A DNA stretch of 40,464 nt from a virus (IMGVR_UViG_3300028413_000003:1-40464); one strand, 5' to 3'. Shown: positions 1,772 through 37,586, numbered from the stretch's first letter. A program made the numbers and translations. Notes: generated by a model not told the origin, from the sequence alone.

Positions 1772-2196
1772 TGTTTGAAAAAGATTACGTTGACCGTCTT
1801 CGTGAATGGTCAGCTTTTAGAAGTACGCTGGAGACATCGGCGTATCCTATTCAGGACGCCGTTGACTTCTACAATACTGCACCGCTGGTCGGCATATCTT
1901 GTGATCCGTATGCCGACAAGTTATGGCCAAACGCATGGGAACTGGTTTACGAAAATGTATACTGCGAGTTTTCCATTATTCTGGGAATATGCTACACTTT
2001 GCAGTTAACTAATCGCTTTTCGGAATCAGTTTTTGAGATATATATCTGTGCAGATAGAGCAAAGTCGGAGATAAAATATCTACTGTATGTTGACGACATG
2101 GTAATTGGTTACCATGCAGATTGTGCAGTAGACAGACAACAAATACCTGTGCATATCACAGTTGAAAAACAATTTACTCCACAAAAACTACAATAA
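1771..2196 (+). CDS. Hypothetical phage protein
   Basis: 141-aa ORF translationally coupled (TAATG) to the upstream gene. Confidence 0.6.
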   Translation: MFEKDYVDRLREWSAFRSTLETSAYPIQDAVDFYNTAPLVGISCDPYADKLWPNAWELVYENVYCEFSIILGICYTLQLTNRFSESVFEIYICADRAKSEIKYLLYVDDMVIGYHADCAVDRQQIPVHITVEKQFTPQKLQ

Positions 2197-2242
2197 ATAC
2201 CTAGCTGTTTTACAGTTACCGTACACATTTAAAGGAAAAAGA

Positions 2243-4306
2243 ATGATTCAAGTCACTAAGAGGAGTGGTTCGTTGGAGCCACTGGACATCGAAAAGTTGC
2301 ACAAAGTTGCATTTTACGCATGCGAAGGCATAACAGGAGTTAGTCCAAGCGAAGTTGAAATTAAAAGCAAGCTGGAGTTTTTCAATGGCATCAAAAGCAA
2401 AGAAATACAAGAAACATTGATCAAAGCAGCAGCAGATCTGATCACAGAAGAAACGCCAAACTATCAATATGTTGGAGGAAGACTCATCAACTACGGGTTG
2501 CGAAAAGAAGTATACGGCGGGTTTGATCCTTTTCATATTAAGAAATTGGTGGACTTGAACACCGCCCGCGGCTACTATGATCCAGAATTAAAAGATACTT
2601 ACACCAACGACGAATGGGATAAAATAGACAGTTTTATCAAACACGACCGTGACGAACAGTTAACTTATGTCGCAATGGAGCAGCTTAGAGGCAAGTACTT
2701 GGTGCAGAACAGAGTCACTGGAGAAATCTTTGAAACCCCACAAATGTGTTATGCATTGATTGCTGCTACCTTGTTCTCGTCGTATCCAAAAGAAACTCGA
2801 TTAACGTGGATTAAAGAATACTACGACGCAATCAGCCTCCACGACATCAGTCTTCCTACGCCAGTTATGGCAGGTGTGCGCACACCACAACGTCAATTCA
2901 GTAGTTGTGTGCTTATTGAAACAGATGACAGCCTTGACAGCATCAGCGCTACTTCTGCGTCGATTGTCAAGTATGTGAGTCAAAAAGCAGGCATCGGCAT
3001 TGGCGCAGGGAACATCCGCGCCATTAACTCGCCAATACGCAAAGGCGATGCATATCACACTGGTATCATTCCATTCTACAAGCATTTCCAGTCAGCAGTT
3101 AAAAGTTGTTGTCTAACTCCGGATACAATTGTTGAAATAATTAACGAAGACGGGCTAGAAACAAAAAAAATCCGCATTGCAGATCTTACTACTGGAATGA
3201 AAATTAAATCCTACGAAGACGGCAAGATTGTATACCGAAAAGTTATTAACAAATGGGATACGCTGGTAACAGAAGATCAGCAGGTTAGGCTGGAATTTAC
3301 AAACGGAACAGTGATAAATTGTAGTATAAATCATCCAATTATGATTCTAGACAACAATGTCGTAACACAAAAGTATCCTCAGGAACTTACAGAATACAAC
3401 AATATTATTTCAGAAAATGGCACTGTATATCTATATTCGATTACAGTCGGTCAACAAAATCCAACAGGATACGTTGACATTACAGTGGAAGACACCAATA
3501 CGTTTTTTGCAAGTTCGTTGATGTCTGACTCAATGGTGTTAACTCACAACAGTCAAGGTGGTGTACGCGGCGGCGCCGCTACTATCTATTATCCAATATG
3601 GCATCTAGAAGCAGAAGAATTGCTGGTGTTGAAAAACAACAAAGGAACTGAAGAAAACCGTATCCGTCACATGGACTACGGAGTACAGTTCAACAAGCTG
3701 ATGTACGAAAGATTAATCACAGGCGGCAACATAACACTATTCTCACCCAGCGACGTACCCGGGTTGTATGAAGCATTTTTTGCAGACCAAGACAAGTTCC
3801 GCGAACTATATGAAAAAGCAGAACGCACTACAAAACTACGCAAGAAAACTGTTAAAGCAAGCGAACTATTCAGTAAGTTTATGGAAGAGCGCAAGTCCAC
3901 AGGTAGAATCTATCTGCAGAATGTTGACAATGCAAACGACCATGGAAGTTTTATTCCGGAGTTTGCTCCTATCCGCCAGAGTAACTTATGTCTAACAGGC
4001 GACACTAAGATTGAAGTAATATTCAATAATGAAAAATTAATTATTAATCTCGACGAAATCGGAACGTTAATGGTTCAGGACGAAGATCTGTTAGTTAAAT
4101 CTTACAATATACTTGATAATAAAACAGAGTATAAAAAGGTTGAAGCATTTGCAAAGACCAACCCGGATGCAGAAGTTATTAGTATCTTTGACGAAGATTC
4201 CGGAAAGACTATAGAATGCACACCTGAGCATAAAATTTATACATTGAACCGAGGGTATGTAGAAGCGCAAGAATTAACGGAAACTGACAGACTTTTAATA
4301 TCGTAA
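2243..4306 (+). CDS. nrdA: Class Ia RNR alpha subunit, fragment a (ATP cone, first redox Cys, cis intein, split-intein N part)
   Basis: MIQVTKRSG ATP cone, TPQRQFSSCVL, SQGGVRGGAA, IRQSNL; start moved to ATG 2243 after AAGGA. Confidence 0.95.
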   Translation: MIQVTKRSGSLEPLDIEKLHKVAFYACEGITGVSPSEVEIKSKLEFFNGIKSKEIQETLIKAAADLITEETPNYQYVGGRLINYGLRKEVYGGFDPFHIKKLVDLNTARGYYDPELKDTYTNDEWDKIDSFIKHDRDEQLTYVAMEQLRGKYLVQNRVTGEIFETPQMCYALIAATLFSSYPKETRLTWIKEYYDAISLHDISLPTPVMAGVRTPQRQFSSCVLIETDDSLDSISATSASIVKYVSQKAGIGIGAGNIRAINSPIRKGDAYHTGIIPFYKHFQSAVKSCCLTPDTIVEIINEDGLETKKIRIADLTTGMKIKSYEDGKIVYRKVINKWDTLVTEDQQVRLEFTNGTVINCSINHPIMILDNNVVTQKYPQELTEYNNIISENGTVYLYSITVGQQNPTGYVDITVEDTNTFFASSLMSDSMVLTHNSQGGVRGGAATIYYPIWHLEAEELLVLKNNKGTEENRIRHMDYGVQFNKLMYERLITGGNITLFSPSDVPGLYEAFFADQDKFRELYEKAERTTKLRKKTVKASELFSKFMEERKSTGRIYLQNVDNANDHGSFIPEFAPIRQSNLCLTGDTKIEVIFNNEKLIINLDEIGTLMVQDEDLLVKSYNILDNKTEYKKVEAFAKTNPDAEVISIFDEDSGKTIECTPEHKIYTLNRGYVEAQELTETDRLLIS
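3110..3550 (+). mobile_element. Contiguous mini-intein (147 aa, no endonuclease) in nrdA
   Basis: KSC|CLTPD...VLTHN|SQGG; removal restores the conserved KSCSQGG. Confidence 0.9.
3989..4303 (+). mobile_element. Split intein 1, N part (105 aa)
   Basis: QSNL|CLTGDTKI...CTPEHKIYTLNRGYVEA..L..TD.LLIS-stop; block A and block B (TxxH) present, no block G. Confidence 0.9.
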
Positions 4307-4370
4307 CTAAATTAATCTCCGTATCGAATATAAACAAAAAATCTCCAATATACTCAAGGAAAAAAAATAA

Positions 4371-4670
4371 ATGCTAAAAATTACAAGACAAAATAAAAGA
4401 GAAGCAGTGTACGATATCACAGTGTTGGGCAATGAAAATTTCTTTGCAAACGGAATACTAGTACACAATTGTGCCGAAATTACTTTACCCACCAAGCCGC
4501 TGAAAGATCTCAATGACGGCGCTCACCGACGTAAAATAAGAATTCCCAAAAACAAATATAATGAATATTTAGAATATAAAAAGTCAGTAGATGGCATTTT
4601 ACGATTAGACAAAGAGAAATTTAATGGCAAAAAAGTACATAAGGTAGCAAGGAATAACAATGGAAAATAA
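4371..4670 (+). CDS. nrdA: NrdA fragment b: split intein 1 C part (33 aa), CAEITLPTKPLKDLND with the catalytic Cys/Glu, and a basic tail
   Basis: VYDITV..NENFFANGILVHN|CAEI; AAGGA upstream. Confidence 0.9.
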   Translation: MLKITRQNKREAVYDITVLGNENFFANGILVHNCAEITLPTKPLKDLNDGAHRRKIRIPKNKYNEYLEYKKSVDGILRLDKEKFNGKKVHKVARNNNGK

Positions 4671-5613
4671 TTGGTTATATGAAGTAGTAGAAAACGAAAA
4701 CAATATTCGAGAAGATGAAGAATACATATATGTAGACGAAATGGTAGAAGACTATGACGGTGCTGCTATCAGCTTGTGTACGCTCTCAGCAATTAATTGG
4801 GGCAATATTAAGACTCCTGCTGATTTTGAAAGAGTTTGTCGCCTTGCAGTACGTGGACTGGACGCACTACTAAGCTATCAACATTATCCAATTCTAGCTG
4901 CACAACTATCAACCGACAAGCGTCGACCACTTGGAGTTGGTATTATCAACTTTGCATATTGGCTTGCTAAAAACAATCTCAATTACCAAGACATTGACAG
5001 CGACGGACTTGCATTAATTGACGAATGGGCAGAAGCCTGGAGTTTCTATCTCATCAAAGCCAGCGCAGACCTAGCAACAGAATTTGGCGCGCCTACCGGA
5101 AACATGGAAACTAAGTACGGACACGGTATTACCCCTAACCAGACATACAAGAAAGATTTGGATCAACTAATTCCACATGTTGAACGTATGGACTGGCAAG
5201 GACTGAGAACGCAGCTTAAAGACACGGGCATAAGAAACTCTACACTAATGGCCCTTATGCCCGCCGAATGTCAAAGCTTGGCAAATGAAATGAGGCTAAA
5301 AGATGGAACAGTTGTAACGCTCGCCGAAGTTATTCAAGATTACGGAAAAATTGATATTAACACTGTTCACGAAAAATTCATGATAGGTCAGAGATTTCCA
5401 TTCCTTAAACCAGTTGAATTGTCAGATAGTATAGCATATGAATGTTATTATAATGGCCCTCAATCTGTTACAGAAATTGAATTAGAAGACGGATCAGTAT
5501 ATAAATTTACTAATAATCACAAACTTCTTGTATTACGAAATAACATAAAAGAATGGATTGAAGTTAAAGATTTATTAGAAGATGACGATATTGTTAGCGT
5601 TAATGATAAATGA
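4660..5613 (+). CDS. nrdA: NrdA fragment c: acidic tail, catalytic core (SLCTLSAINWG, RPLGVG, RNSTLMALMPAE) and split intein 2 N part (5269-5610)
   Basis: RNR core motifs followed by CQSLANE...FTNNHKLLV...DLLEDDDIV-stop; AAGGA at 4649-4653. Confidence 0.9.
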   Translation: MENNWLYEVVENENNIREDEEYIYVDEMVEDYDGAAISLCTLSAINWGNIKTPADFERVCRLAVRGLDALLSYQHYPILAAQLSTDKRRPLGVGIINFAYWLAKNNLNYQDIDSDGLALIDEWAEAWSFYLIKASADLATEFGAPTGNMETKYGHGITPNQTYKKDLDQLIPHVERMDWQGLRTQLKDTGIRNSTLMALMPAECQSLANEMRLKDGTVVTLAEVIQDYGKIDINTVHEKFMIGQRFPFLKPVELSDSIAYECYYNGPQSVTEIELEDGSVYKFTNNHKLLVLRNNIKEWIEVKDLLEDDDIVSVNDK

Positions 5614-5766
5614 CTAGATCATAAATTTTCAATATCTCGAGGATTTATTGAAGGAATTAATCCTGCGCTATTAGGAAGCTTGCAAAATTTAGAATTTATT
5701 CCCTGGGAAGATAACGTGTCAAAACAAGGAAAATGTTCAATTACAAAAGAGGAATTATTAAAATGA
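5614..5766 (+). pseudogene. C-terminal remnant of an HNH-type homing endonuclease between the halves of split intein 2
   Basis: In frame after TGA 5611-5613: LDHKFSISRGFIEGINPALLGSLQNLEFIPWEDNVSKQGKCSITKEELLK. Confidence 0.65.
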
Positions 5767-6314
5767 AAATTAAACGTATTACAAGAGACGCAGGAACAGA
5801 ACACACTTGGGATGTTTCAACTGACAACGAAACTTATACCTTGTCAAATGGATGCATTAGTCATAACACTAGTGCGCAAATTGCAAATGCAACAAATGGC
5901 ATCGAGCCGCCGCGTGCATTTATTAGTGTAAAGCAAAGCAAGCACGGAGTACTAAAGCAAGTAGTACCGGAATACAAGCGCCTTAAAAACAAGTACGATC
6001 TGCTCTGGACACAAAAGTCGCCCGAAGGATATCTAAAAATTATGTCTGTGCTACAAAAGTACATAGACCAAGGCATCAGTGTTAACACCAGCTACAATCC
6101 TGAGTTTTACGAAGATGAAAAGATTCCAATGAGTGTAATGCTGCAACACATGGTGATGTTCTACAAATATGGCGGCAAGCAGCTTTATTATTTCCAAACA
6201 AACGATGGTCAAGGAGAACTTGACGTTAACAAGATGCTAGGTGAAGAAGACTTGCCAGAACTCGAGCAAGTTGATGCAGATGACGACTCAGATTGCGAAT
6301 CCTGCAAGCTTTGA
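5763..6314 (+). CDS. nrdA: NrdA fragment d: split intein 2 C part (35 aa) plus C-terminal extein with the CxxC swinging arm
   Basis: TWDVST...SHN|TSAQIANATNGIEPPR, GGKQLYY, CESCKL; AGAGGA RBS, ATGA overlap. Confidence 0.92.
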   Translation: MKIKRITRDAGTEHTWDVSTDNETYTLSNGCISHNTSAQIANATNGIEPPRAFISVKQSKHGVLKQVVPEYKRLKNKYDLLWTQKSPEGYLKIMSVLQKYIDQGISVNTSYNPEFYEDEKIPMSVMLQHMVMFYKYGGKQLYYFQTNDGQGELDVNKMLGEEDLPELEQVDADDDSDCESCKL

Positions 6315-12595: not shown

Positions 12596-12626
12596 TTGAC
12601 ACTTCGCACGTTATAGTGTATAAATA
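12596..12626 (+). promoter_or_regulatory. tmRNA promoter: sigma70 type overlapping a TATAAATA late-type motif
   Basis: TTGACA-N17-TATAAA(TA). Confidence 0.7.
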
Positions 12627-12630
12627 TATA

Positions 12631-12965
12631 CATGCAGCAGAGAGTAATCGGTTGTTGCATTATTGATGATTGTAATAAATGAAACGGACCTGGGGGCGGT
12701 ACCCAGATCGTCCACCAAAAGTTTAGACGGGTGATTGACATCTTCAAGGTAGTGCTTGTAAACAACTAAATGATGAACGTTACGGGCGATAAATAGGATC
12801 GACGTGCAGGAAAAACAATTATTAGGATACCCGGATTTAAGCTCGGTTAATGCGATCAAACTACTAAATGCAACCGATAATGCAAACACTGTGGAAATGG
12901 CCCTAGCGGCTTAATTCACTGGCGCCCGGGGAGAGCGTAGCAACAGAATCTCCTCACTTGCAGCC
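12631..12965 (+). ncRNA. ssrA: Two-piece (circularly permuted) tmRNA; tag (A)ATDNANTVEMALAA
   Basis: Acceptor piece with T-arm (loop GGCGGTA) and ATCGTCC-A-CCA ending 12717; coding piece starts GGGCGAT at 12784 (7-bp stem with G3:U70); AGGATCGAC; resume codon GCA 12870, stop 12912-12914. Outer ends approximate. Confidence 0.93.
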
Positions 12966-27343: not shown

Positions 27344-27432
27344 ATTCAAGTGGCAGAATGGTTATGCAACGGATTGCAAATCCGTGGACAGTAGTTAGTC
27401 TTACGTCGGTTCGATTCCGACCTTGAATTCCA
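27344..27432 (+). tRNA. tRNA-Cys(GCA) with a long variable arm
   Basis: Cloverleaf, loop TTGCAAA, U73, CCA. Confidence 0.88.
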
Positions 27433-27437
27433 ATTTT

Positions 27438-27514
27438 GGTGCATTAGCTCATTGGGTTAGAGTATACCGCTCATAACGGTAAGGTGCGTGGTTCGAATCC
27501 ACGATGCACCACCA
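27438..27514 (+). tRNA. tRNA with CAT anticodon, probably Ile2
   Basis: TACCG-CTCATAA-CGGTA arm, CCA; tilS is in the window. Confidence 0.88.
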
Positions 27515-27519
27515 AATAA

Positions 27520-27595
27520 GGCGCCATCGTCTATCGGTTTAGGATACTAGGTTTTCGCCCTGGAGAGACGGGTTCAACTCCTGTTGGCGCTTCCA
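27520..27595 (+). tRNA. tRNA-Glu(TTC)
   Basis: Cloverleaf, loop TTTTCGC, CCA. Confidence 0.82.
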
Positions 27596-27712
27596 CTTCC
27601 ACTATAACTATTGACAACATCGTGTATGCATGTTACAACATAAGCTTACACACAAGCAGAAAGAGAATACAATGAAACAAAAACACAAACACAAGCATCG
27701 TGATAAACAAAT

Positions 27713-27787
27713 GCGCCGGTAGCTCAGAGGTAGAGCAAGGAACTTTTAATTCCAAGGTCGTGGGTTCGATCCCCTCCCGGCACACCA
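27713..27787 (+). tRNA. tRNA-Lys(TTT)
   Basis: Loop CTTTTAA, CCA; promoter TTGACA(27611)-N17-TACAAC upstream. Confidence 0.85.
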
Positions 27788-27789
27788 AC

Positions 27790-27893
27790 ATTGTTTTAGT
27801 GATGTACTAGATGTGATTCGATTTCACAAGGCGCGCCAGACGTTGCCTGCAGGTTTGCTCGTACTGGCCAGATAGTACATCTTTTAAACAATG
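27790..27893 (+). ncRNA. Circularly permuted tRNA-like RNA (Y RNA/YrlA-like architecture)
   Basis: Terminal stem GATGTACTA/TAGTACATC, then T-arm TGTGA-TTCGATT-TCACA, loop-closed acceptor-like stem AGGCGCG/CGTTGCCT, D-like arm GCA-GGTT-TGC. Confidence 0.55.
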
Positions 27894-27898
27894 AATAT

Positions 27899-27930
27899 GG
27901 TCAATTAGCTCAATAGTAGAGCACCGAGCC
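27899..27930 (+). pseudogene. 5' half of a tRNA
   Basis: GGTCAAT-TA-GCTC-AATAGTA-GAGC, then truncated. Confidence 0.6.
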
Positions 27931-27964
27931 GAGCTTAATGCTAAATAAGCATAGGAGAACTATT

Positions 27965-28612
27965 ATGCTTATATGCCAACACTGTAGTAAAGAATGCAAA
28001 AATAAAAATAGTCATACAAACCATGAAAGAACCTGTCCTTCAAATATTAACAGAATATACAAAAATGGAATGACTGGTAAAACAGCATGGAATAAAGGTA
28101 AAACACTACTTACTTGCGAAGTGACTAAAAAACAGTCGATGCAATCTAAAAAAGACTTTAAATTAGGAAAAAGAAAAGTTACAGGAAGAGCGGCGACGTT
28201 AACAGTTGAAGAAAGGTCAAGACTAGCAAAAAAGCAAGGATTTGGAGGCTACCGCGAAGGCGCAGGCAGAAGTAAAAAATTTTATTATAACGATTCTTTT
28301 GGTAAGCAAGTTTGCTTGCAATCAACGTACGAATTAAGATGTGCTGAGATATTAGATACACTAGGGATTAAATGGATTAGACCCAAGTACATTAAGTATA
28401 ATATAAATAAAAAATACTTTCCTGATTTCTATCTTGTAGATTACGACATTTATTTAGATCCAAAAAACAATTTTTTAGCAATTCAAGACGAAGAAAAAAT
28501 AACTTGTGTTTGTGAACAGAATAATGTAATAGTATTGATATTAACAGAAGACAAACTAAATGAAGAATATATAAAATCGTTACAGAGTCCGAAAAGTGAG
28601 GGCCTCAGCTGA
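27965..28612 (+). CDS. Putative free-standing homing endonuclease: Zn-finger, AWNKG repeat, PD-(D/E)xK nuclease
   Basis: CQHC..H..C, QSTYE, YFPDFYL..DIYLDPK; AGGAG RBS. Confidence 0.75.
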   Translation: MLICQHCSKECKNKNSHTNHERTCPSNINRIYKNGMTGKTAWNKGKTLLTCEVTKKQSMQSKKDFKLGKRKVTGRAATLTVEERSRLAKKQGFGGYREGAGRSKKFYYNDSFGKQVCLQSTYELRCAEILDTLGIKWIRPKYIKYNINKKYFPDFYLVDYDIYLDPKNNFLAIQDEEKITCVCEQNNVIVLILTEDKLNEEYIKSLQSPKSEGLS

Positions 28613-28653
28613 TAACTGAGTGGTAGAAGGAGCGTTACCTTCCTGTAGCACCA
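28579..28653 (+). tRNA. Atypical tRNA-Ile(GAT) with T-loop AGCGTTA, overlapping the nuclease stop codon
   Basis: 7-bp acceptor GTTACAG/CTGTAGC, CTCAG-CTGATAA-CTGAG, A73, CCA. Confidence 0.7.
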
Positions 28654-28654
28654 A

Positions 28655-28694
28655 TAAAGAGAGGTAGTGGGTTCAATACCCACCGCGACTACCA
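28655..28694 (+). pseudogene. 3' half of a tRNA
   Basis: TAAAGAGAGGTA-GTGGG-TTCAATA-CCCAC-CGCGACT-A-CCA. Confidence 0.55.
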
Positions 28695-28787
28695 AGTTTC
28701 GGTATATTGTGTTGAAAATGATATCAACGTCAACACGAAAATGTGGAATGGTTGGGGCTAATGCAAATGACCCACCTCGACTACCAA
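28678..28787 (+). repeat. 18-nt direct repeat (1 mismatch) of a tRNA 3' end
   Basis: ACCCACC[G/T]CGACTACCAA at 28678-28695 and 28770-28787. Confidence 0.8.
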
Positions 28788-28898
28788 AGATATGCGAATC
28801 CGGGCGCATCCAAGAATTTTCCGGCTGAATAACGGTACCAGTTATGGCTGACTGGTTAAATCGCGCCGCTGTAGCGTTGAGCCAACCACACACCCAAT

Positions 28899-29147
28899 TT
28901 GTGTAATAGGATTAAAATGGAATTTAACAAAAACGACCTTAGACTAGTACGCAAACGAATAGAGCCTAGTTTGCCTATTATAGCGGGTGCAGCGGTCATG
29001 TTAAACAGCGGAGGTCCTAATATGCTTGTGCAAAACATCGTTAACAACATTTGCGAGTGCGTATGGATTTCTAACAAAACTGTTGAATATAAGACTTTTC
29101 CAGTTTCTTGTTTAACCCTGATAGGCGACGTAAACGTTTACATTTAA
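28899..29147 (+). CDS. YodC/DUF2158-like small protein
   Basis: GAAVMLNSGGPNMLV...CECVW..F. Confidence 0.65.
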   Translation: MCNRIKMEFNKNDLRLVRKRIEPSLPIIAGAAVMLNSGGPNMLVQNIVNNICECVWISNKTVEYKTFPVSCLTLIGDVNVYI

Positions 29148-29167
29148 TAATAATTACACAGAATAAT

Positions 29168-29253
29168 GTGTCGCATGCTCTAAGGTGGGGCAGGGGATTG
29201 TAAATCCTCCGGGTGAGAGCCCATGCTTGGTTCGATTCCAAGGCGACTCACCA
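29168..29253 (+). tRNA. tRNA-Tyr(GTA)
   Basis: Loop TTGTAAA, long variable arm, CCA. Confidence 0.88.
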
Positions 29254-29259
29254 AATACT

Positions 29260-29336
29260 GCTTTTGTAGCTCAATTGGATAGAGTACCGGATTTCGAATC
29301 CGTTGGTTGTAGGTTCGAGTCCTACCAAGAGCACCA
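29260..29336 (+). tRNA. tRNA-Arg(TCG)
   Basis: Loop TTTCGAA, CCA. Confidence 0.9.
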
Positions 29337-29342
29337 AATAAC

Positions 29343-29419
29343 GCACACGTAGCTCAGTCTGGTGGAGCACTGGTTTGAAGAACCAGGTGTCGGAGGTTCA
29401 AATCCTTCCGTGTGCACCA
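29343..29419 (+). tRNA. tRNA-Phe(GAA)
   Basis: Loop TTGAAGA, CCA. Confidence 0.9.
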
Positions 29420-29543
29420 AATTGTCTATTAGCATAAGCTGTGAAGCAGACCGGGTAACTTCCCACTGTGAATGGATGCACCGGATAGGCACCGGATGGT
29501 AAGCAGACTAGTGTCCTGCATAGATAATATAATAAATACTGTT

Positions 29544-30254
29544 ATGCAAAGATTAATATCAAATCGGGGCCTCGAACAGGCAATTTCTAAAAATTTCAGT
29601 CCAACCGACACCGAAAAACTTTTTAAAAAAAATAAGAAAAGACTAGGAAAAGACTGGGTTTATCAAAACAAAAAAATCTCATATAGTCAAAATCAGGAAG
29701 GATTTCGACACGGCGAGTTTGCCAGCACAGATTGGAAAAATTCCATAGTTGTGCTAGGATGTTCAAATGTGTACGGAATTGGCCTGGCCAACGAGGATAC
29801 TGTTTGTTCGCAGCTGGAAAAACTTCTAAACATTCCTACAGTTAATCTAGGAATTGCAGGAAGTGCAATTGACGTTAGTTCTTGGAATTCTCTTATTCTG
29901 CACGAACACTATCCGCACCCAAAAGCAATCGTGCAAATTTGGACTGGGCCACATCGATATAGCAATATCTCCAAACCTGGATTTATATGCTGTTACTTGC
30001 CTCAGTCTCCTGGGTATTGTGCTAGGCACAATTGGCAAGGTACGTCGGAATTTTATATGATGGCCGATCGAGCATTATGGAGAAACAAAACGTTATATTG
30101 CGAAGGGAGTTTCTTCAGTGACCATGCTGGAATTACTCCATTTAAAAACGTTGATCACGCAAGAGACCTAGCACACCCAGGGATCAAGACCAACGCTGCT
30201 GCCGCAGAAAAAATTGCTGAGGATTTAATACAACGAGGCATAAAAATTAGTTGA
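29544..30254 (+). CDS. SGNH/GDSL-like hydrolase-fold protein
   Basis: VVLGCSNVYG block I, ARDLAHPG block V; AATAAATA upstream. Confidence 0.6.
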   Translation: MQRLISNRGLEQAISKNFSPTDTEKLFKKNKKRLGKDWVYQNKKISYSQNQEGFRHGEFASTDWKNSIVVLGCSNVYGIGLANEDTVCSQLEKLLNIPTVNLGIAGSAIDVSSWNSLILHEHYPHPKAIVQIWTGPHRYSNISKPGFICCYLPQSPGYCARHNWQGTSEFYMMADRALWRNKTLYCEGSFFSDHAGITPFKNVDHARDLAHPGIKTNAAAAEKIAEDLIQRGIKIS

Positions 30255-30286
30255 CATACTAGTATAGACATAGTACGTTGTTTTAG

Positions 30287-30407
30287 TAAGCTGTCGTCTA
30301 ATAGAAGGACACCTTGACGTTGGAAATTGGGTTCAAATCCTACTAGTCGTCTAATCTGGAAGGACACCAAGACTGAGGAAATGCAGTCAGCAAATGCTGC
30401 CAGCTTA
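30287..30407 (+). ncRNA. Fused double pseudo-tRNA
   Basis: One acceptor stem TAAGCTG/CAGCTTA encloses two D-arm/anticodon-arm/T-like units; promoter TTGACA(30251)-N17-TACGTT. Confidence 0.5.
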
Positions 30408-30433
30408 TTAAACATTATTTAGAAAGAAATACA

Positions 30434-30805
30434 ATGCTCGAACTATTCAAAACTGATGTACTTGTAATGCGCAAGGAAAAGAATCCACTTGCAAGTGTAA
30501 TGGTGTTTCACTTAGATGAAATTCAGAAAATTGGCAAGAATGATAATACCCGAGAAACCTCCGCTGACGAAGCAGTCCAGTATGTCAAGAAAGCTGTGCA
30601 GAAGCTAAAGGAGAACAAGTTTGCTGATCCACAAGAGATCGCAATCCTTTCCAAGTATCTTCCTGCTATGGCAACTGAGCTACAACTGCGAGCTGTGATT
30701 GAGCCAATTCTGCAATCCGGCGGCAACATCGGACAAGTGATGAAAGCTGTAAAATCAGAGTTTGGTACCAGTGCTGATATGGCATTGGTTCGCACACTTT
30801 GCTAA
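30434..30805 (+). CDS. GatB/YqeY domain protein
   Basis: EIAILSKYLP...IGQVMKAVK..FG..AD...V. Confidence 0.8.
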   Translation: MLELFKTDVLVMRKEKNPLASVMVFHLDEIQKIGKNDNTRETSADEAVQYVKKAVQKLKENKFADPQEIAILSKYLPAMATELQLRAVIEPILQSGGNIGQVMKAVKSEFGTSADMALVRTLC

Positions 30806-30932
30806 CACAGGGAAGAGTATTTGTACATCCACAAGGCGGCACATTGTTTATTAATAATCAAAGAGTTTATTACAGAAACCATCGAAATGCTAGAAACTGC
30901 AAAAACATTGAAACAGGAAAAAGAGTTATAAT

Positions 30933-31934
30933 ATGGGATGCTGGAATAAAACATGCGGACTAACCAATCTACCAATTTTCGAAGGCGAAGAAGTCTACGT
31001 ATTTCCGCTTATGGAAAACGGCACTGATTCCAGTTTCTGCAAAAGTTCAGCATTATGGAAACCTGTGCTTACTCCGTTTGTAGCAGAATACGACGACTAC
31101 GGTGGTGGCACCAATGCCTCTGGCGTGGCACTGCCTCTAATTCTTGCTGGAATCAAAGAGATACTAGTCGAAACTGAGGTTGGCGACAATGAGGTTCATG
31201 ATATTGCAGTCAAACGTGATAATTTTGACATCGACTTGTTCTTTGAGGCCACGCACGAACGCAGACTTTTTGCCAAAGAATACGGATCAATGCCGCCTTG
31301 TGAAATCAACTATGTAATGATGCGCAAAGACTTTGTAGACGATCTGTGGTCTAACTATAAATTTGATCAATACACCGGCAAGGGAAAAGGACTTGATCCC
31401 ACTGAAGATTATGATCGTGATGTAACCTATGCACAGCTAGCAGAAACATTACCCAGCTTTATTGAAAGTTATTTTGAAAATAAGTGTTGGTCAGATGAAA
31501 ATCTCACAGATGAAGAATTTGTAGAAAAATGGGTTACTGACAAAACAGTCGATGTAGAAAAAATTGCCAAGGTAAAAAGTATTCTTAGGACCGTGGATAA
31601 TGGTGGATTTAGTGATGGTATAGTACTAGACCAAAATTCTTCGCACCCACTTAAAAACACATTTCGTCGCTATGGTGCCGGCACCGAGCTTGACATATTT
31701 CGTCTACGATCTAAAGTAAGTGATGCATATGCAGCAGGCGATACCAACCGGGTACTTGAATTGTTGCAACTGGCGTTGGTAGGAAATTGCATTGAAAGAT
31801 TTATGGATAGTACCCGAAAAGCATGGATCCCAGGGCTTCACGAAGGAAGTCAAGGTCAAGATCATGATGCGTATCGGTTCTTGGTTAACGGAATCACCAA
31901 GATTATTGACGAATACGAGGTTGAACATCATTAA
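30933..31934 (+). CDS. Hypothetical protein (MGCWNKTCGLTNLPI, YDDYG)
   Basis: 333-aa ORF. Confidence 0.75.
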   Translation: MGCWNKTCGLTNLPIFEGEEVYVFPLMENGTDSSFCKSSALWKPVLTPFVAEYDDYGGGTNASGVALPLILAGIKEILVETEVGDNEVHDIAVKRDNFDIDLFFEATHERRLFAKEYGSMPPCEINYVMMRKDFVDDLWSNYKFDQYTGKGKGLDPTEDYDRDVTYAQLAETLPSFIESYFENKCWSDENLTDEEFVEKWVTDKTVDVEKIAKVKSILRTVDNGGFSDGIVLDQNSSHPLKNTFRRYGAGTELDIFRLRSKVSDAYAAGDTNRVLELLQLALVGNCIERFMDSTRKAWIPGLHEGSQGQDHDAYRFLVNGITKIIDEYEVEHH

Positions 31935-32163
31935 CATGCTTGACAGTACTGTATTAGTCTGCTAATATAGTTACACAACACAACAAACAGGGACGTTACA
32001 ATGGCTAAGATTGTTATTTCAGAAGAATTTTCAGAACAGCTCAGAGCATGGGATAAAACATCTTCAGAGAGCCTTGCAAAATTAGGATTGGATGAATTGC
32101 CAGTTGGCCTCCCAACAATCGAATCTTGGAATAAAGTCACCAAAATTATAAAAGAGATCAACA

Positions 32164-32613
32164 ATGAAGATTGAATATCGAAACGGCGACATGTTTAAAA
32201 CTGATATCAAAGTGCTTGCACACGGCTGCAATGCACAAGGTGTTATGGGTAGTGGCGTGGCAAAGATTGTACGAGACGACTTTCCGTTGGCGTACAATGC
32301 ATATTTAAACCAGTATGCTGCAATTACTATTGGTCTTGCAATGGGCTGTATTATTCCTGTAGAAGAAAACGACAAAGTTTTGATCAATGCAATTACACAG
32401 CAGTTCTATGGCGGCGAAAAAAAGCGATACGTTAGCTACGATGCAGTATCCGATGCAATGCGCAACATCAATGAATTTTGCGAATGCAGGGGCCATTCTC
32501 ATGTTGCAATGCCGCAGATTGGCGCTGGCCTGGGTGGCGGCAATTGGAATGTTATTGCTACCATTATTGAGAGTGAATTCACCAATGTAAAACCGGTTGT
32601 GTACATTTATTAA
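32164..32613 (+). CDS. Macro domain (ADP-ribose-binding/hydrolase) protein
   Basis: GDMF, AHGCNAQGVMGSGVA, MPQIGAGLGGGNW. Confidence 0.92.
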   Translation: MKIEYRNGDMFKTDIKVLAHGCNAQGVMGSGVAKIVRDDFPLAYNAYLNQYAAITIGLAMGCIIPVEENDKVLINAITQQFYGGEKKRYVSYDAVSDAMRNINEFCECRGHSHVAMPQIGAGLGGGNWNVIATIIESEFTNVKPVVYIY

Positions 32614-32625
32614 AGGAATAAAATA

Positions 32626-32844
32626 TTGCCAAAACACGACGGAGCCCTACTAGCTGTGATGTTTATACTCTTGTCAGTTGCGATGATCTTTTTTGTTGTT
32701 GCAGTAGTACATCAAGAATTCTTGAAAACAGCGACAGAAACTTTGGAAACAATGACGCAAGAATCCATTAGCCGAGGCTATGCATTGTTTTGCCCTAATA
32801 CCGGAGAGCTTGCATGGGTTGGCGAATGCGATAAGGAACAGTAA
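32626..32844 (+). CDS. Small membrane protein
   Basis: TM helix; AAGGA RBS, TTG start. Confidence 0.5.
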   Translation: MPKHDGALLAVMFILLSVAMIFFVVAVVHQEFLKTATETLETMTQESISRGYALFCPNTGELAWVGECDKEQ

Positions 32845-32854
32845 ATTTTATTAC

Positions 32855-32935
32855 GGACTACGTAGCTCAGATTGGAAGAGCGCCTATGCTTTGTCGCGTG
32901 GGAGGTCGTTGGTTCAAGTCCATCCTAGTCCAACA
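32855..32935 (+). tRNA. Aberrant tRNA: expanded anticodon arm, ACA 3' end, identity unclear
   Basis: Normal D- and T-arms; arm CCTATG-CTTTGTCG-CGTGGG. Confidence 0.5.
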
Positions 32936-33058
32936 ATAGCTTGCGAGAAAGATTAACTTCCTTCCTGGTTTAAAGACTAGGATAGCAAGCTTAGGCAGCA
33001 ACGACTGCCTTATCCAAGGTCCTGCATACAACCACTTCGTTGAGAGGTTGTATGCAGA

Positions 33059-33128
33059 TTCTGTATCGTCTACTGGATAGGACGCTAGCAGTCAGCTAGA
33101 AAAACGGGTTCGATTCCTGTTGCAGTAA
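33059..33128 (+). tRNA. Aberrant tRNA-Asp(GTC)-like, A at position 33, no CCA
   Basis: CTAG-CAGTCAG-CTAG arm; T-arm ACGGG-TTCGATT-CCTGT. Confidence 0.5.
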
Positions 33129-33148
33129 TGACGTTGGATAGAAATTAC

Positions 33149-33252
33149 GGAGAGGTAGCTCAGAGACGAAGGAGTTCTGCAGAACGAATTTGTTGAGGTA
33201 GAGCACGGGCAAGAGCCTGGTGTCAGTGGTTCGATTCCATTTCTCTCCACCA
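33149..33252 (+). tRNA. Aberrant tRNA with a ~30-nt D-loop insertion and a 4-nt anticodon loop
   Basis: Acceptor GGAGAGG/TCTCTCC-A-CCA, canonical T-arm, arm CGGGC-AAGA-GCCTG. Confidence 0.65.
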
Positions 33253-33256
33253 ATAT

Positions 33257-33331
33257 GCGCCGGTAGCTCAGCGGTAGAGCAGCGGTCTCTTAAACCGAAG
33301 GTCATGGGTTCGAATCCCATCCGGCACACCA
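33257..33331 (+). tRNA. tRNA-Lys(CTT)
   Basis: Loop CTCTTAA, CCA. Confidence 0.88.
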
Positions 33332-33419
33332 AAATACACGTTGACATGTCAGCAACACTCTGCTACATTTACATATAGACACGATGCACAATGCATAGAC
33401 ACACAGGATAGGAACTAAC

Positions 33420-33644
33420 ATGAAGCGTAAATGCAATGACTTTACCATCACTCCAAACACACAATCCGAACGAGTGCAAACAAACTTGTGGAATGTCATA
33501 GTTGGCGGCAAGCAATATACCACTGTGGTAGGGCAAGAAAAAGCACAACGCACTGCCGATGCACTGAACCTTGATCCCGATGCGCTGGAACGTGGCGAAA
33601 CGCGAGCAGCGCGTGCGGCTGGCCAAACCAGCACACTTGACTAA
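33420..33644 (+). CDS. Hypothetical protein
   Basis: AGGA RBS; promoter TTGACA(33341)-N17-TACATT. Confidence 0.55.
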   Translation: MKRKCNDFTITPNTQSERVQTNLWNVIVGGKQYTTVVGQEKAQRTADALNLDPDALERGETRAARAAGQTSTLD

Positions 33645-33875
33645 CATGCAAAAGCTTCTTGAACAGTGGATGAACAATCAAGACTCTAAGAACAGTAACG
33701 AGATTGTCCGTCGTGTGCGCAAATACTGGTCTGCACACAATCGCAAGGAATTTGTAGCCGAACTAATCTTCAATATGGATTACTCCAATGACGAGTTAGT
33801 AACGCTAGCAAACGAAATTGGTCGTCTAGCACATGAAAGAGAACGTGTGCTAGACACTATTAAAAGAGAAAATAT

Positions 33876-33952
33876 GCCGGTTTAGCTCAGTTGGTTAGAG
33901 CGCTAGTTTGTGGAACTGGAGGTCCTTGGTTCAATCCCAAGAGCCGGTACCA
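33876..33952 (+). tRNA. tRNA-His(GTG), A73 and no G-1
   Basis: Loop TTGTGGA; 3' end AGCCGGT-A-CCA. Confidence 0.9.
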
Positions 33953-33977
33953 AATATAAAAATCAAAGGATAAAGTT

Positions 33978-34400
33978 ATGGAAAGCAAGCATATAACATA
34001 CAACAGATTGGTAGGGCCAGTCAAAACATTTGAAGGTCTGCTGGGCCGTGTGTTGAGTGCTGTAACCGCCGACGACGATTCTCTGACATTGTACGTTACA
34101 GAAAACAACTTTGTTACACTAGAACATGATCAAGATTGTTGCGAAAGTGTGTACATCGAAGACATCGTCGGAGACTTAGAAGATCTAGTCGGTACTCCTT
34201 TGTTGTTGGTTGAAGAAGTTTCAAACTACGACCCGGGTCCAACTACACATAGCAACGACAGCCATACATGGACCTACTACAGATTCCGCACCATCAAAGG
34301 ATCAGTCGATGTTAGGTTCTATGGAAGCAGCAACGGTTATTACTCCGAAGGTGTGAGTGTCAAAATCTTCAACGACGACAAGAAGGTCGGCAATGAGTAG
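33978..34400 (+). CDS. Conserved phage hypothetical protein (HDQDCCESVYIED, SNGYYSE)
   Basis: Motifs recalled from many phages; AAGGA RBS. Confidence 0.75.
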   Translation: MESKHITYNRLVGPVKTFEGLLGRVLSAVTADDDSLTLYVTENNFVTLEHDQDCCESVYIEDIVGDLEDLVGTPLLLVEEVSNYDPGPTTHSNDSHTWTYYRFRTIKGSVDVRFYGSSNGYYSEGVSVKIFNDDKKVGNE

Positions 34401-34623
34401 TATTTCCAACAAAGCGTTGCTTGCATTGTTATCTGAGTCTGCACTAGACCAACTCAAGGATGCCGTTGCAGAAGAGCTTGACGGCGCAATGTATTGCACA
34501 CGGTGCTGGAGCGCATGGAGTGTCGGTACTATGTCAGCCAATGACTTTGTGCCAGCCAACGAAGAGGATGTTGTAGAGGATATGGTAATATTAATTCTCA
34601 AGGCACTGGCACAAAATGAGTAA
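34357..34623 (+). CDS. Hypothetical protein (AMYCTRCWSAW)
   Basis: Packed + strand run; start probably later. Confidence 0.55.
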   Translation: MSKSSTTTRRSAMSSISNKALLALLSESALDQLKDAVAEELDGAMYCTRCWSAWSVGTMSANDFVPANEEDVVEDMVILILKALAQNE

Positions 34624-34822
34624 AGTTGTAAACGAGTACGACGAACCAGAGGCGATTGCGTGTGCAGAATATGAAAAACAACGCAAGGCACGCGAATGGG
34701 GCCACGTTCACACTGAATCAACTTCTTATCACAAGTGGATGAGATTAGTATCACTTTCAACAGCAAGGCAGGCCGTAACAAGCCCAGCGTAGACTTGACT
34801 ACGAAATAAGAAGGAATAAACC

Positions 34823-35005
34823 ATGACAACGTTTGCCAAGATAGACGGCTGTTGGTGTTGCGTGGTAACATACCATAAATTTGAAGCAGATTATTATCGC
34901 CCAGCAGAGTGTCATCTTTGCGGAATGAATCAGGAGGCGCACATTAAATACACTGGTATTGCGCTATCCGACAAAGATGCACTCTTAAATGCGCAAAAGG
35001 AATAA
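34823..35005 (+). CDS. Hypothetical Cys-rich protein
   Basis: AAGGA RBS. Confidence 0.5.
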   Translation: MTTFAKIDGCWCCVVTYHKFEADYYRPAECHLCGMNQEAHIKYTGIALSDKDALLNAQKE

Positions 35006-35008
35006 ACC

Positions 35009-35215
35009 ATGAACCTTTACTTTGTGCCAGGAAAGCCCCTGCCTTTTATTCTTAGCGTAGTTGAAAAATCAAAGCCGACTTTCGATATGCACGGAGATAT
35101 TTTGCAAAATGGCGGCGAAGATATTGGTGTATTTGTTCGTACAACACCGTCTGGCAAGGGCATTACAGTTCGCCGCAAGATGTCTGATGTAACGCCGCAT
35201 ATAAATAACACTTAG
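35009..35215 (+). CDS. Hypothetical protein
   Basis: AAGGA RBS. Confidence 0.5.
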   Translation: MNLYFVPGKPLPFILSVVEKSKPTFDMHGDILQNGGEDIGVFVRTTPSGKGITVRRKMSDVTPHINNT

Positions 35216-35235
35216 TAGACAAGGATATTAAGAAA

Positions 35236-35418
35236 AACTATTAGGAAGTTGGCTTCGAGGCAGCCATCTTATAATGAGTGGAACGAAGTACCCTAGACGC
35301 GAGAGAAACCTTGTCGGGCTAGCAATAGTGGCAAGGCTAGAGCGCCAAGGGAAAAATATGGATAGTAGCCTGCGTTATAGACCTGGTTTTCCTTTGGCGT
35401 AACAGCACACTATTAGTT
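35236..35418 (+). ncRNA. ncRNA mimicking 23S rRNA H42-H44 (GTPase-associated centre) with a 117-nt insert
   Basis: AGGAAGTTGGCTTCGAGGCAGCCATCTTATAATGAGT...GCGTAACAGCACACTA; closing stem AACTATTAG/CTATTAGTT; TATAAATA at 35200-35207. Confidence 0.75.
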
Positions 35419-35485
35419 ATAATAAATACGTTGCACATATAAACTTTTGTGTTATAGTTGCAGTAAGAAGTGGTAAAAATAAACA

Positions 35486-37042
35486 ATGACCAAGAAATTT
35501 GATGATGTTGAATGGGACAAACAGCCCAGTGGCTATATCGAGCATAGTAAAAACAACTGCGACAAGATGCAAGAATTACTCAACGAAACTGGTCCGGGCT
35601 TTTGTTTGGCAAAATGGACACAAGTTACTATGCACTTGGGATCAGGGTTAACACACAGTTGTCACCATCCCACTGCACATAAAATTCCGTTGAACGAACT
35701 CGAAGTCAATCCTAGTGCATTGCACAACACAGAGCATAAAAAGACAGCCCGCAAGCAAATGCTCAACGGCAAAAGACCATCAGAATGTGACTTCTGTTGG
35801 CGCATCGAGGACAACACCAATGAGACCAGCGATCGCACGTTAAAAAGTTTGGATCCGTACAGTGTGCATAACTTTGATGAAATTGCTGCACTAAAGGGCG
35901 ACGAGAATGTATTTCCAAAATATATGGAAATTAGTTTCAGTAATGTATGCAATTTTAAATGTGCATATTGTGGGCCAAGCTTCAGCAGCAAATGGGTAGA
36001 TGAAATAACAGAACACGGTGCCTATTTATTCCCGGGCGTACAGTACAACGGCAATCCAGCAGAGCAAATTAAAAATCGAGAAGACAATCCATACACTGAT
36101 GCATTCTGGAAATGGTTGCCCGAAGCACTGCCGCATCTGCACACATTGCGTGTCACAGGCGGAGAACCGTTGATGAGCAAACACACTGTCAAACTAATGG
36201 AATACATGCTGGAACATCCAAATCCCAACATGGAGTTTGCCATCAACAGCAACGGTTGCCCGCCCGACAAGTTGTGGAAACAGTTTACCAAGTTGTCAAA
36301 TCAATTGGTTGATGAAAAATGTGTCAAGCGAGTTACGTTATTCCTCAGTGCCGAAAGTGTCGAGGGTCAGGCCGAATACAGCCGAGACGGTATGAATTGG
36401 AACATGCTCAAAGAAAATTTAACATACTTTCTTGGGAACACAACCGATACTCGCGTTACATTTATGGCAGCGTTTAACTTGTTCAGTCTCCCAACCTTCC
36501 TAGACTTTTTAGAATATGTGCTGTCATTGAAGAAGACGTACAACAAACACCACATATTTCAGCAATTAGACCAAAGTGGAGTCAACTTAGACAACACAGT
36601 AAACCTCGGGTTGACAAAATACAAAACATCCGGGTATACCAACACGCATCGTTCATACAATCGGATTGGCATTGATATTCCTTATGTTAGACACCCAGAG
36701 TTTTTGGATGTGGCGTTGTCAACCAAGGAACTGGTTGCTGAATTCTTGCTGCCTTCTGTGAATTTTATGTACGCAAATGCTGCCGACGAGTGGAACGGTA
36801 ATACAGGGTTTTTAAGCAACGAATCGCTTAAATTAAAAAGAATCTTATTGGATGTAATGACTGCATGTGACCTTCATCCTACAGATATCAAAACTAAAAA
36901 AATTACCCACGGAAGAAGTTCGTTCTACCAGTTTGTAAATGAATACGACCGCAGACGCGGCAAGGATTTCCTCAATACATTTCCAGAAATGACAAACTTT
37001 TATGCAACCTGCAAAGCAGCGTATGAAGAATTAAATCCGTAA
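35486..37042 (+). CDS. Radical SAM protein (with an N-terminal twitch/SPASM-like Cys cluster)
   Basis: CNFKCAYC, VTGGEP, C.FCW..E. Confidence 0.9.
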   Translation: MTKKFDDVEWDKQPSGYIEHSKNNCDKMQELLNETGPGFCLAKWTQVTMHLGSGLTHSCHHPTAHKIPLNELEVNPSALHNTEHKKTARKQMLNGKRPSECDFCWRIEDNTNETSDRTLKSLDPYSVHNFDEIAALKGDENVFPKYMEISFSNVCNFKCAYCGPSFSSKWVDEITEHGAYLFPGVQYNGNPAEQIKNREDNPYTDAFWKWLPEALPHLHTLRVTGGEPLMSKHTVKLMEYMLEHPNPNMEFAINSNGCPPDKLWKQFTKLSNQLVDEKCVKRVTLFLSAESVEGQAEYSRDGMNWNMLKENLTYFLGNTTDTRVTFMAAFNLFSLPTFLDFLEYVLSLKKTYNKHHIFQQLDQSGVNLDNTVNLGLTKYKTSGYTNTHRSYNRIGIDIPYVRHPEFLDVALSTKELVAEFLLPSVNFMYANAADEWNGNTGFLSNESLKLKRILLDVMTACDLHPTDIKTKKITHGRSSFYQFVNEYDRRRGKDFLNTFPEMTNFYATCKAAYEELNP

Positions 37043-37103
37043 CATTAGGAAAGATGATAAATTACTGGTCGACACAGCATACAAAATAATGTAGTATAGC
37101 AAT

Positions 37104-37352
37104 ATGATGACAAATGATGAACAAAAAACGTTTTATGTGCAATGTAGTGAAATACTTGGCATTGAACATGAGTGGAACGATCCAGTTCCGCGTAGAACAC
37201 GATGGAACACAAGGTTACTGGGTAACGGTAGGTTCAAAGGCTTTGGCCTGATCCGCTGTTACGACAAGCAGATTATGGTAACAAGTAGACAACAAGGTAC
37301 TAAAATGTTTGCATCCGCTGATGCAGTATACGAATTTTTGAAAGGCTTATAA
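37104..37352 (+). CDS. Hypothetical protein
   Basis: Promoter TCGACA(37069)-N17-TAGTAT upstream. Confidence 0.6.
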   Translation: MMTNDEQKTFYVQCSEILGIEHEWNDPVPRRTRWNTRLLGNGRFKGFGLIRCYDKQIMVTSRQQGTKMFASADAVYEFLKGL

Positions 37353-37393
37353 TGGAAAATAATACTATACACCGAATAAGAATAGTCTGCGTC

Positions 37394-37506
37394 GAGTTAT
37401 AATAAATCTGCCGATCACAGTGCAGTTGTAACTTGTTGGACTTAGCAGGGCGGCGTCAGAAACCTCGAGGGGACGGCTCATTATCGTCTACGCCCTGCGA
37501 CCAATA
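37394..37506 (+). ncRNA. Unidentified structured RNA immediately 5' of a pseudo-tRNA
   Basis: GCAGGGCG/CGCCCTGC 8-bp stem enclosing two hairpins; TGTTGG/CCAATA outer stem. Confidence 0.45.
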
Positions 37507-37510
37507 ATGT

Positions 37511-37586
37511 GTGGCCCGTAGCTTAGTAGGTAGAGCAGCTGAAGTTTAATCAGTGGTCGGGGGTTCAAGTCCTTCCGGGCGCACCA
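37511..37586 (+). tRNA. Aberrant tRNA with loop AGTTTAA (TTT anticodon, no U33)
   Basis: GCTGA/TCAGT stem, T-arm, CCA; imperfect acceptor. Confidence 0.5.

Follow-up and report, generated by a model that had tools for sequence, protein, structure and literature searches.

[quoted passage not shown] 2010, PMC3045599; Friedrich et al. 2007, as cited in PMC3045599), so the kind of system is already known. The Aeh1 nrdA gene is split in the loop between Cys439 and Cys462, and its products still form a fully active (a/b)2-beta2 enzyme (PMC3045599). The upstream piece ends in a basic tail (pI 10.4) and the downstream piece begins with an acidic one (pI 3.8). Both are essential, and their deletion abolishes activity; they are dispensable for the NrdA-a/NrdA-b heterodimer and needed for dimerisation of the heterodimer and for assembly of the holoenzyme (PMC3045599). 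We counted 10 K/R and 4 D/E in the basic tail of Aeh1, and 1 and 11, respectively, in the acidic tail.

Three other groups of split phage genes are relevant. The fractured genes described by Dassa et al. (2009, PMC2677866) combine split inteins with free-standing endonucleases; the end of the endonuclease gene overlaps the downstream start, a hairpin covers the endonuclease ribosome-binding site (RBS), and one locus, gp41-7, is without an endonuclease. The T4 topoisomerase genes gp39/gp60 are split by mobA and encode oppositely charged extensions (PMC3045599). Finally, nrdJ-a/nrdJ-b of Thermus phage phiYS40 and nrdA of Listeria phages A511 and P100 are divided by spacers of 12 nt and 210 nt, respectively (PMC3653736). 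In the open-access literature, we found no description of a tail-bearing nrdA split without an endonuclease, or of a family of such tails.

A 251-kb virus record from IMG/VR begins with the stretch of DNA analysed here (40,464 nt, the first 40 kb of the record; below called the window). Its nrdA consists of four co-oriented ORFs, a to d, separated by three breaks (Table 1). Pfam model Intein_splicing covers residues 3-33 of ORF b, which align with other intein C-halves, and the extein residues that follow are collinear with those of two uninterrupted relatives, L004 and L005, reading ..LPTKPLNDLNDPDGEISLC... The first 34 residues of ORF c match nothing in NrdA; Pfam places Ribonuc_red_lgC at residues 27-210 of this ORF and Intein_splicing at residues 264-312. 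The tails and whatever lies between them, referred to below as the cassette, are flanked in the window by a direct repeat, GACGG(C/T)GCT.

Table 1. Features of the split nrdA gene, numbered from the first nucleotide of the window.
Feature	Coordinates	Strand	Content or basis
ORF a	2162-4306		Pfam: ATP-cone, N-domain, start of the barrel, one entire mini-intein, N-half of a split intein
ORF b	4371-4670	+	intein C-half of 33 aa, 17 extein residues, 49 further residues
Split-intein C-half, 33 aa, joining ORF a to ORF b	4371..4469	+	ends VHN before the +1 Cys
NrdA extein, 17 residues CAEITLPTKPLKDLNDG, with the equivalents of Cys439 and Glu441	4470..4520	+	translation
Left copy of the direct repeat, GACGGCGCT (Asp-Gly-Ala), at the cassette boundary	4515..4523	+	read from the sequence
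Core of the basic C-terminal tail of the N-fragment, 38 aa, AHRRK..FNGKK	4521..4634	+	alignment A3, pN/pS, profile search
Lineage-specific tail extension of 11 codons, VHKVARNNNGK (4635-4667), and stop	4635..4670	+	codon comparison with L019 and L003
Deletion junction	4646..4648	+	AGC, matching neither L019 flank
Remnant of the predicted homing-endonuclease ORF (last six sense codons and stop), including the RBS of ORF c	4649..4670	+	comparison with L019
ORF c	4660-5613	+	acidic tail, NrdA barrel, then the N-half of the second split intein
Acidic N-terminal tail of the C-fragment, 34 aa, M..WLYEVVE..EYIYVDEMVEDYDG	4660..4761	+	alignment A4, 26 clusters, pN/pS
Right copy of the direct repeat, GACGGTGCT (Asp-Gly-Ala), at the cassette boundary	4756..4764	+	read from the sequence
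NrdA barrel extein of ORF c, from AAISLCTLSA (equivalent of Cys462)	4762..5277	+	Pfam
ORF d	5733-6314		C-half of the second split intein; remainder of NrdA

An earlier reading of this DNA, the original prediction, had singled out the break between ORFs b and c, and its description of the break proved accurate in most respects. From His52 (nucleotide 4524) onwards, ORF b ends in 48 residues with 16 K/R and 5 D/E, and the first 33 residues of ORF c (to 4758) contain 13 D/E and a single Arg before continuing as GAAISLCTLSA. ORF c has its own RBS (AAGGA, 4649-4653, 6 nt before the ATG at 4660), and the stop codon of ORF b (4668-4670) overlaps ORF c by 11 nt in a different frame. The Cys439-x-Glu441 equivalent lies in ORF b (CAEI) and the Cys462 equivalent in ORF c (ISLC), which places the break, as predicted, in the interval that mobE occupies in Aeh1 (PMC3045599). 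Not only an endonuclease gene, but any ORF at all, is missing between b and c.

The window shares with Aeh1 the site of the split in this loop, the absence of an intron or intein at the break, the predicted separate translation of the pieces, and a basic upstream tail facing an acidic downstream one. It differs in that the free-standing endonuclease gene is gone apart from 22 nt, and its N-fragment, unlike that of Aeh1, additionally needs intein splicing both in cis and in trans. The a/b and c/d breaks are of the fractured-gene type, and the window resembles the fractured genes also in being a metagenomic phage nrdA broken by free-standing GIY-YIG or other endonucleases (PMC2677866); the b/c break, in contrast, has no intein halves, and therefore its pieces cannot be ligated and must associate non-covalently. 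T4 gp39/gp60 is likewise an endonuclease-associated split of an essential enzyme with charged extensions, but it concerns a different gene, its endonuclease is still present, and the function of its tails is putative. The RNR genes of phiYS40 and A511/P100 resemble the window in that the catalytic subunit is encoded by two adjacent ORFs with a short spacer; neither tails, nor the remnant of an endonuclease, nor a set of relatives some of which have the endonuclease and others not, have been described for them.

We traced the origin of the b/c break by comparing the window with its relatives. On an extein tree (757 columns; inteins and tails left out), the window was sister to L019, a locus with both tails and an endonuclease gene, with support of 100/100 and 97% identity. 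In a nucleotide alignment (blastn), the left-hand match ended at window 4645 and L019 2727, and the right-hand match began at window 4649 and L019 3496. The 768 nt missing from the window (L019 2728-3495) cover most of the L019 endonuclease ORF (2756-3517), leaving only the last 22 nt of the gene, with the RBS and stop codon included. ORF b ends AGG AAT AAC AAT GGA AAA TAA and the L019 endonuclease ends AGG AAT GAA AAT GGA AAA TAA. As the two are in one frame, ORF b stops at the codon that once ended the endonuclease. By the same codon comparison, the 11-nt overlap of ORFs b and c is the original overlap of endonuclease and C-fragment.

The window also differs at the end of the basic tail. In L019, L026, L022, L027 and L035, the tail has the ancestral ending ..NGKKST-stop. 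This stop is bypassed in the window because the run of A at 4629-4634 is one base shorter (A6, versus A7 in L019; A6 is also found in L003), and the extension VHKVARNNNGK results from the shorter run combined with read-through over the deletion junction into the last codons of the endonuclease. The A6 run could be an assembly error, which would alter only the last residues and the 11-nt overlap. Part of the net charge of +11 given for this tail in the original prediction is an accident of the deletion, the value typical of the family being about +5 to +9. That the tails persisted after the invader was lost, also part of that prediction, is strongly supported by the endonuclease codons at the end of ORF b and by the gene kept in the sister locus. 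Elsewhere in the 251-kb record (estimated completeness, 71%), no endonuclease paralogue was detected.

Most relatives, including L019, keep the endonuclease gene between the tails. A gap of 769-813 nt holding an ORF of 237-260 aa was present in L003, L006/L013, L019, L022-L028 and L030-L035. The ORF matched PHROG 314 'homing endonuclease' (E 6e-18) and carries a GFIY..(9)..YIGSH motif. Pfam returned no match at the default threshold, and weak matches to SegE_GIY-YIG, GIY-YIG and I-HmuI NUMOD-like models in a lenient scan of six members. Over its C-terminal ~140 aa, the product shares 33% identity with the second half of Aeh1 MobE, the C-terminal one (E 3e-17); a search of PDB sequences with the endonuclease profile gave no meaningful match. 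The PHROG, motif, weak Pfam and MobE matches therefore identify the predicted product as a free-standing homing endonuclease, in which a GIY-YIG-type head appears to sit on a MobE-like DNA-binding body. The relatives have a homologue of the C-terminal DNA-binding half of MobE and, in common with Aeh1, a downstream start that overlaps the end of the endonuclease gene, whereas their nuclease domain is GIY-YIG-like and that of MobE is HNH. The RBS and ATG of the C-fragment sit within the last codons of the endonuclease, and every member retains these signals as well as the stop codon of the N-fragment. An inverted repeat covers the endonuclease RBS (L019 2727-2758; L003 4184-4210; e.g., AATATATAAGGAGTATATATT), resembling the translational hairpins of Aeh1 mobE and of the fractured-gene endonucleases (PMC2677866). 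A programmed frameshift fusing b to c within their 11-nt overlap was considered and dropped, given that the endonuclease gene intervenes in most relatives and that ORF c has a conserved RBS.

Judging from gene remnants, the endonuclease was lost independently in at least four other lineages, that is, at least five times counting the window. L020 and L021 (17.7-kb and 253-kb contigs, their protein being found also on a 335-kb contig) have a 60-nt spacer; the same 60 nt form the 3' end of the endonuclease gene in L031, a close relative. L029 and L036 retain 105 nt and 73 nt of the endonuclease 3' end, respectively. In P0033, a metagenomic protein of 110 aa, an intein C-half, a 17-residue extein and the basic tail run on in frame into the final 22 endonuclease residues (..SATDLSMYKLRKLKEAK). 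The three endonuclease-less rows on the extein tree require three separate changes. AAGGA or AAAGGA before the ATG of the C-fragment was retained in all five loss variants, and we infer that deletions removing this RBS were not viable.

Two loci, L004 and L005, are uninterrupted at the split site (..LNDLNDPDGEISLC..). L004 is sister to the cassette-bearing L003 (100/99), and their flanking DNA is 92-100% identical. As such near-identical alleles differ in the presence of the cassette, it must have been gained or lost as a unit, as would be expected of homing, and L004 and L005 show the state before insertion or after reversion.

The mobile elements of nrdA differ between these loci. L004 has a split intein at the catalytic Cys and is without the tail cassette; L003 has the cassette 17 codons downstream and is without the intein; the window and L019 have both. 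In the window, the spacer between ORFs c and d (5614-5732) encodes the C-terminal portion of an 85-aa product whose ORF is complete in L003 (5940-6197); the L003 version holds ..HLDHKF.. and ..IPWEDN.., which look HNH-like. A second endonuclease-like gene of this nrdA has thus likewise been reduced to its 3' end. No more than 64 nt (4307-4370) separate the two halves of the first split intein in the window, at a place where L019 has a 274-aa ORF (1634-2458) with weak HNH matches. With both of these breaks also emptied, all three nrdA breaks of the window are without endonuclease genes that relatives still have. Elsewhere in the window, Rfam models detected an alphaproteobacterial-type permuted tmRNA and at least 10 tRNA genes (12599-12958 and 27344-37583).

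The original prediction had pointed to other phage nrdA genes as the place to look for the same split. Words from the first 45 residues of ORF c, used as search seeds, recovered at least 26 clusters of metagenomic NrdA C-fragments that have the acidic tail, and the matching basic tail was present in every upstream fragment that could be read. At the level of sequence, this recurrence confirms that the two tails are not a product of chance. A search of 1.84 billion representatives with a profile of the basic tail (HMMER) matched NrdA pieces only. Unsplit NrdA carrying both tails as a loop insertion was found neither in that search nor among the proteins of 271-863 aa that share words with the basic tail, and no phage in the cultured-phage collection had these tails.

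Conservation within the tails was assessed from alignments of 23 acidic tails (A4) and 15 basic tails (A3). Invariant positions were W5, L6, Y7, E8, V10, Y24, V29, E30 and D31 in the former, and R7, P9, K10, E15, Y19, K20, K21 and L27 in the latter. They are largely hydrophobic or aromatic (W, L, Y and V in the acidic tail; Y, L and P in the basic tail), while acidic positions interchange and shift among relatives. The basic tail is conserved in relatives only over its first 38 residues (4521-4634). Net polarity is maintained throughout the family: basic tails of other members contain 11-15 K/R and 4-8 D/E, and acidic tails 0-3 and 13-15, respectively. Because the invariant positions are mostly aromatic or aliphatic and the acidic ones shift, the pattern points to a putative specific packed interface with charge steering in preference to a pure charge zipper. 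The proposal that an 'electrostatic zipper' holds the composite active site together finds no support as worded. Structure prediction contributed little: AlphaFold2 gave a poor model of the intein-free C-fragment P0020 alone (A5; mean pLDDT 52, about 25 for tail residues 1-41), and a complex prediction of the two tails alone (A3 and A4) scored 0.30 against a mark of 0.32, in a run without controls.

Selection on the tails was estimated by Nei-Gojobori counts for both tails combined. Values of pS ranged from 0.35 to 0.92 and those of pN from 0.05 to 0.32, and dN/dS was 0.08-0.22 where dS was unsaturated. The excess of pS over pN was also seen between endonuclease-less lineages (L020 versus L029; window versus L020). 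Translation of the tails therefore proceeds in the frames of the adjacent exteins, and purifying selection acts on them.

The tails of this family are longer than those of Aeh1, and their left boundary lies six residues further into the loop. By eye, the acidic tails look alike (..IYEVYEDEEY.. versus ..LYEVVE..EDEEY..), but this likeness failed to beat composition-matched shuffles: 336 of 5000 shuffles reached at least the real score for the acidic tail, and 2043 of 5000 did so for the basic tail. As no homology was detectable, the similarity in charge polarity between the family and Aeh1 may be convergent, and the case for a function of the tails draws on analogy and on signatures of selection.

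Could the tails nevertheless be inert leftovers, not cleanly removable from barrel halves that assemble by their own interface? We regard this as improbable. The Aeh1 heterodimer does form without its tails, but activity is abolished when they are deleted (PMC3045599). In the present family, a dN/dS of ~0.1-0.2 is maintained over saturated synonymous divergence, also after loss of the endonuclease, and although shifts of the stop or start codon could shorten the tails, cores of 38 aa and 33 aa are kept in every lineage.

We give somewhat less credit still to the tails being a degenerate split intein, either still trans-splicing or a non-splicing relic that mediates association. An intein origin was raised for Aeh1 by Crona et al. 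(PMC3045599), and a true split intein lies 17 codons upstream in the same gene. The tails themselves speak against it: the N-tail starts Ala/Val-His/Ser-Arg (AHRRK in the window) without block A or B, and the C-tail ends Asp-Gly before Ala (DYDG), without His-Asn or a +1 Cys/Ser/Thr. Pfam intein models matched the genuine intein halves only and gave no hit in the tails, and hhalign of the tail profiles against the intein halves of the same gene gave a probability of 0.1%. Together, the two tails amount to only ~73 aa. Known mini-inteins are well longer than this.

It is highly unlikely that the nrdA gene of the window is a decaying pseudogene and the arrangement functionless. Four ORFs, three breaks and a mini-intein may give that impression, but all four ORFs are open, the catalytic residues, intein splice junctions and RBSs are intact, intact nrdB and glutaredoxin genes follow downstream, and the same endonuclease-less split occurs in several other lineages from many samples.

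Scarcely credible, lastly, is a small self-splicing intron at 4524-4758, with the ~1-kb version in relatives being an intron with an endonuclease ORF: its excision would keep the frame (removing 235 nt, not the 241 nt originally stated), and group I introns that contain GIY-YIG or HNH ORFs are frequent in nrd genes of phages (PMC3653736), but Rfam gave no intron match at E up to 10 (window 4200-5100; L003 3900-5200), the RNA fold of 4500-4780 was no stabler than shuffles (z +0.93), both tails change in the manner of protein, with pN << pS in the exon frames, and the N-fragment stop and C-fragment RBS and ATG are conserved in all members. The Rfam, Pfam and hhalign searches agree with the original description of the break as intein-free, and gave no intron signature either.

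We therefore favour, as the probable explanation, that the window is an endonuclease-less descendant of a mobile tail-endonuclease-tail cassette that split nrdA, with the pieces assembling via the tails. The cassette comprises a basic upstream extension of ~40 aa, the gene for a GIY-YIG-type/MobE-like endonuclease and an acidic downstream extension of ~33 aa, and would have broken nrdA in the loop that joins the Cys439/Glu441 strand to the Cys462 strand. In the window, the 768-nt deletion has taken the endonuclease gene, and the NrdA pieces are still separate ORFs with their tails. Each piece would first be completed by intein splicing (a with b; c with d); by analogy with Aeh1, the two separately translated polypeptides would assemble non-covalently and require the tails for an active enzyme. 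Most likely, the tails would form a small heteromeric module with a hydrophobic and aromatic core steered by opposite charges, placed next to the dimer interface, and would thereby add stability to the (N/C)2 large subunit. With nothing short of a precise excision of 235 nt able to rejoin the gene, losing the endonuclease at random would lock in both the split and the tails.

A more tentative suggestion is that the tails make up a portable heterodimerisation module, complete in itself, that is carried along with a homing endonuclease in a single cassette and becomes a permanent part of the enzyme once the endonuclease decays. If true, this would be a natural path, taken repeatedly, for selfish elements to convert a single essential gene into two, and the sole constraint on decay would be survival of the 3' end of the endonuclease gene, which carries the downstream translation start. 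Should the module bind alone, it would be a compact natural 'glue' for split proteins unrelated to inteins. The tail pairs could be used to test reassembly of enzyme halves, and their practical value would lie in split-protein design.

Aeh1 has so far been the single studied case of an essential enzyme reassembled via tails introduced by a homing endonuclease. The present locus and its relatives show that such cassettes form a wider family, with a different nuclease domain and unrelated tails. They provide a series of states before, during and after gene fission by a selfish element, of which the window supplies the 'after' state, its deletion mapped and a relic of the endonuclease still in place; this state appears to have arisen several times and to be stable. 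The series bears on why the nucleotide-metabolism genes of phages tolerate so much fragmentation.
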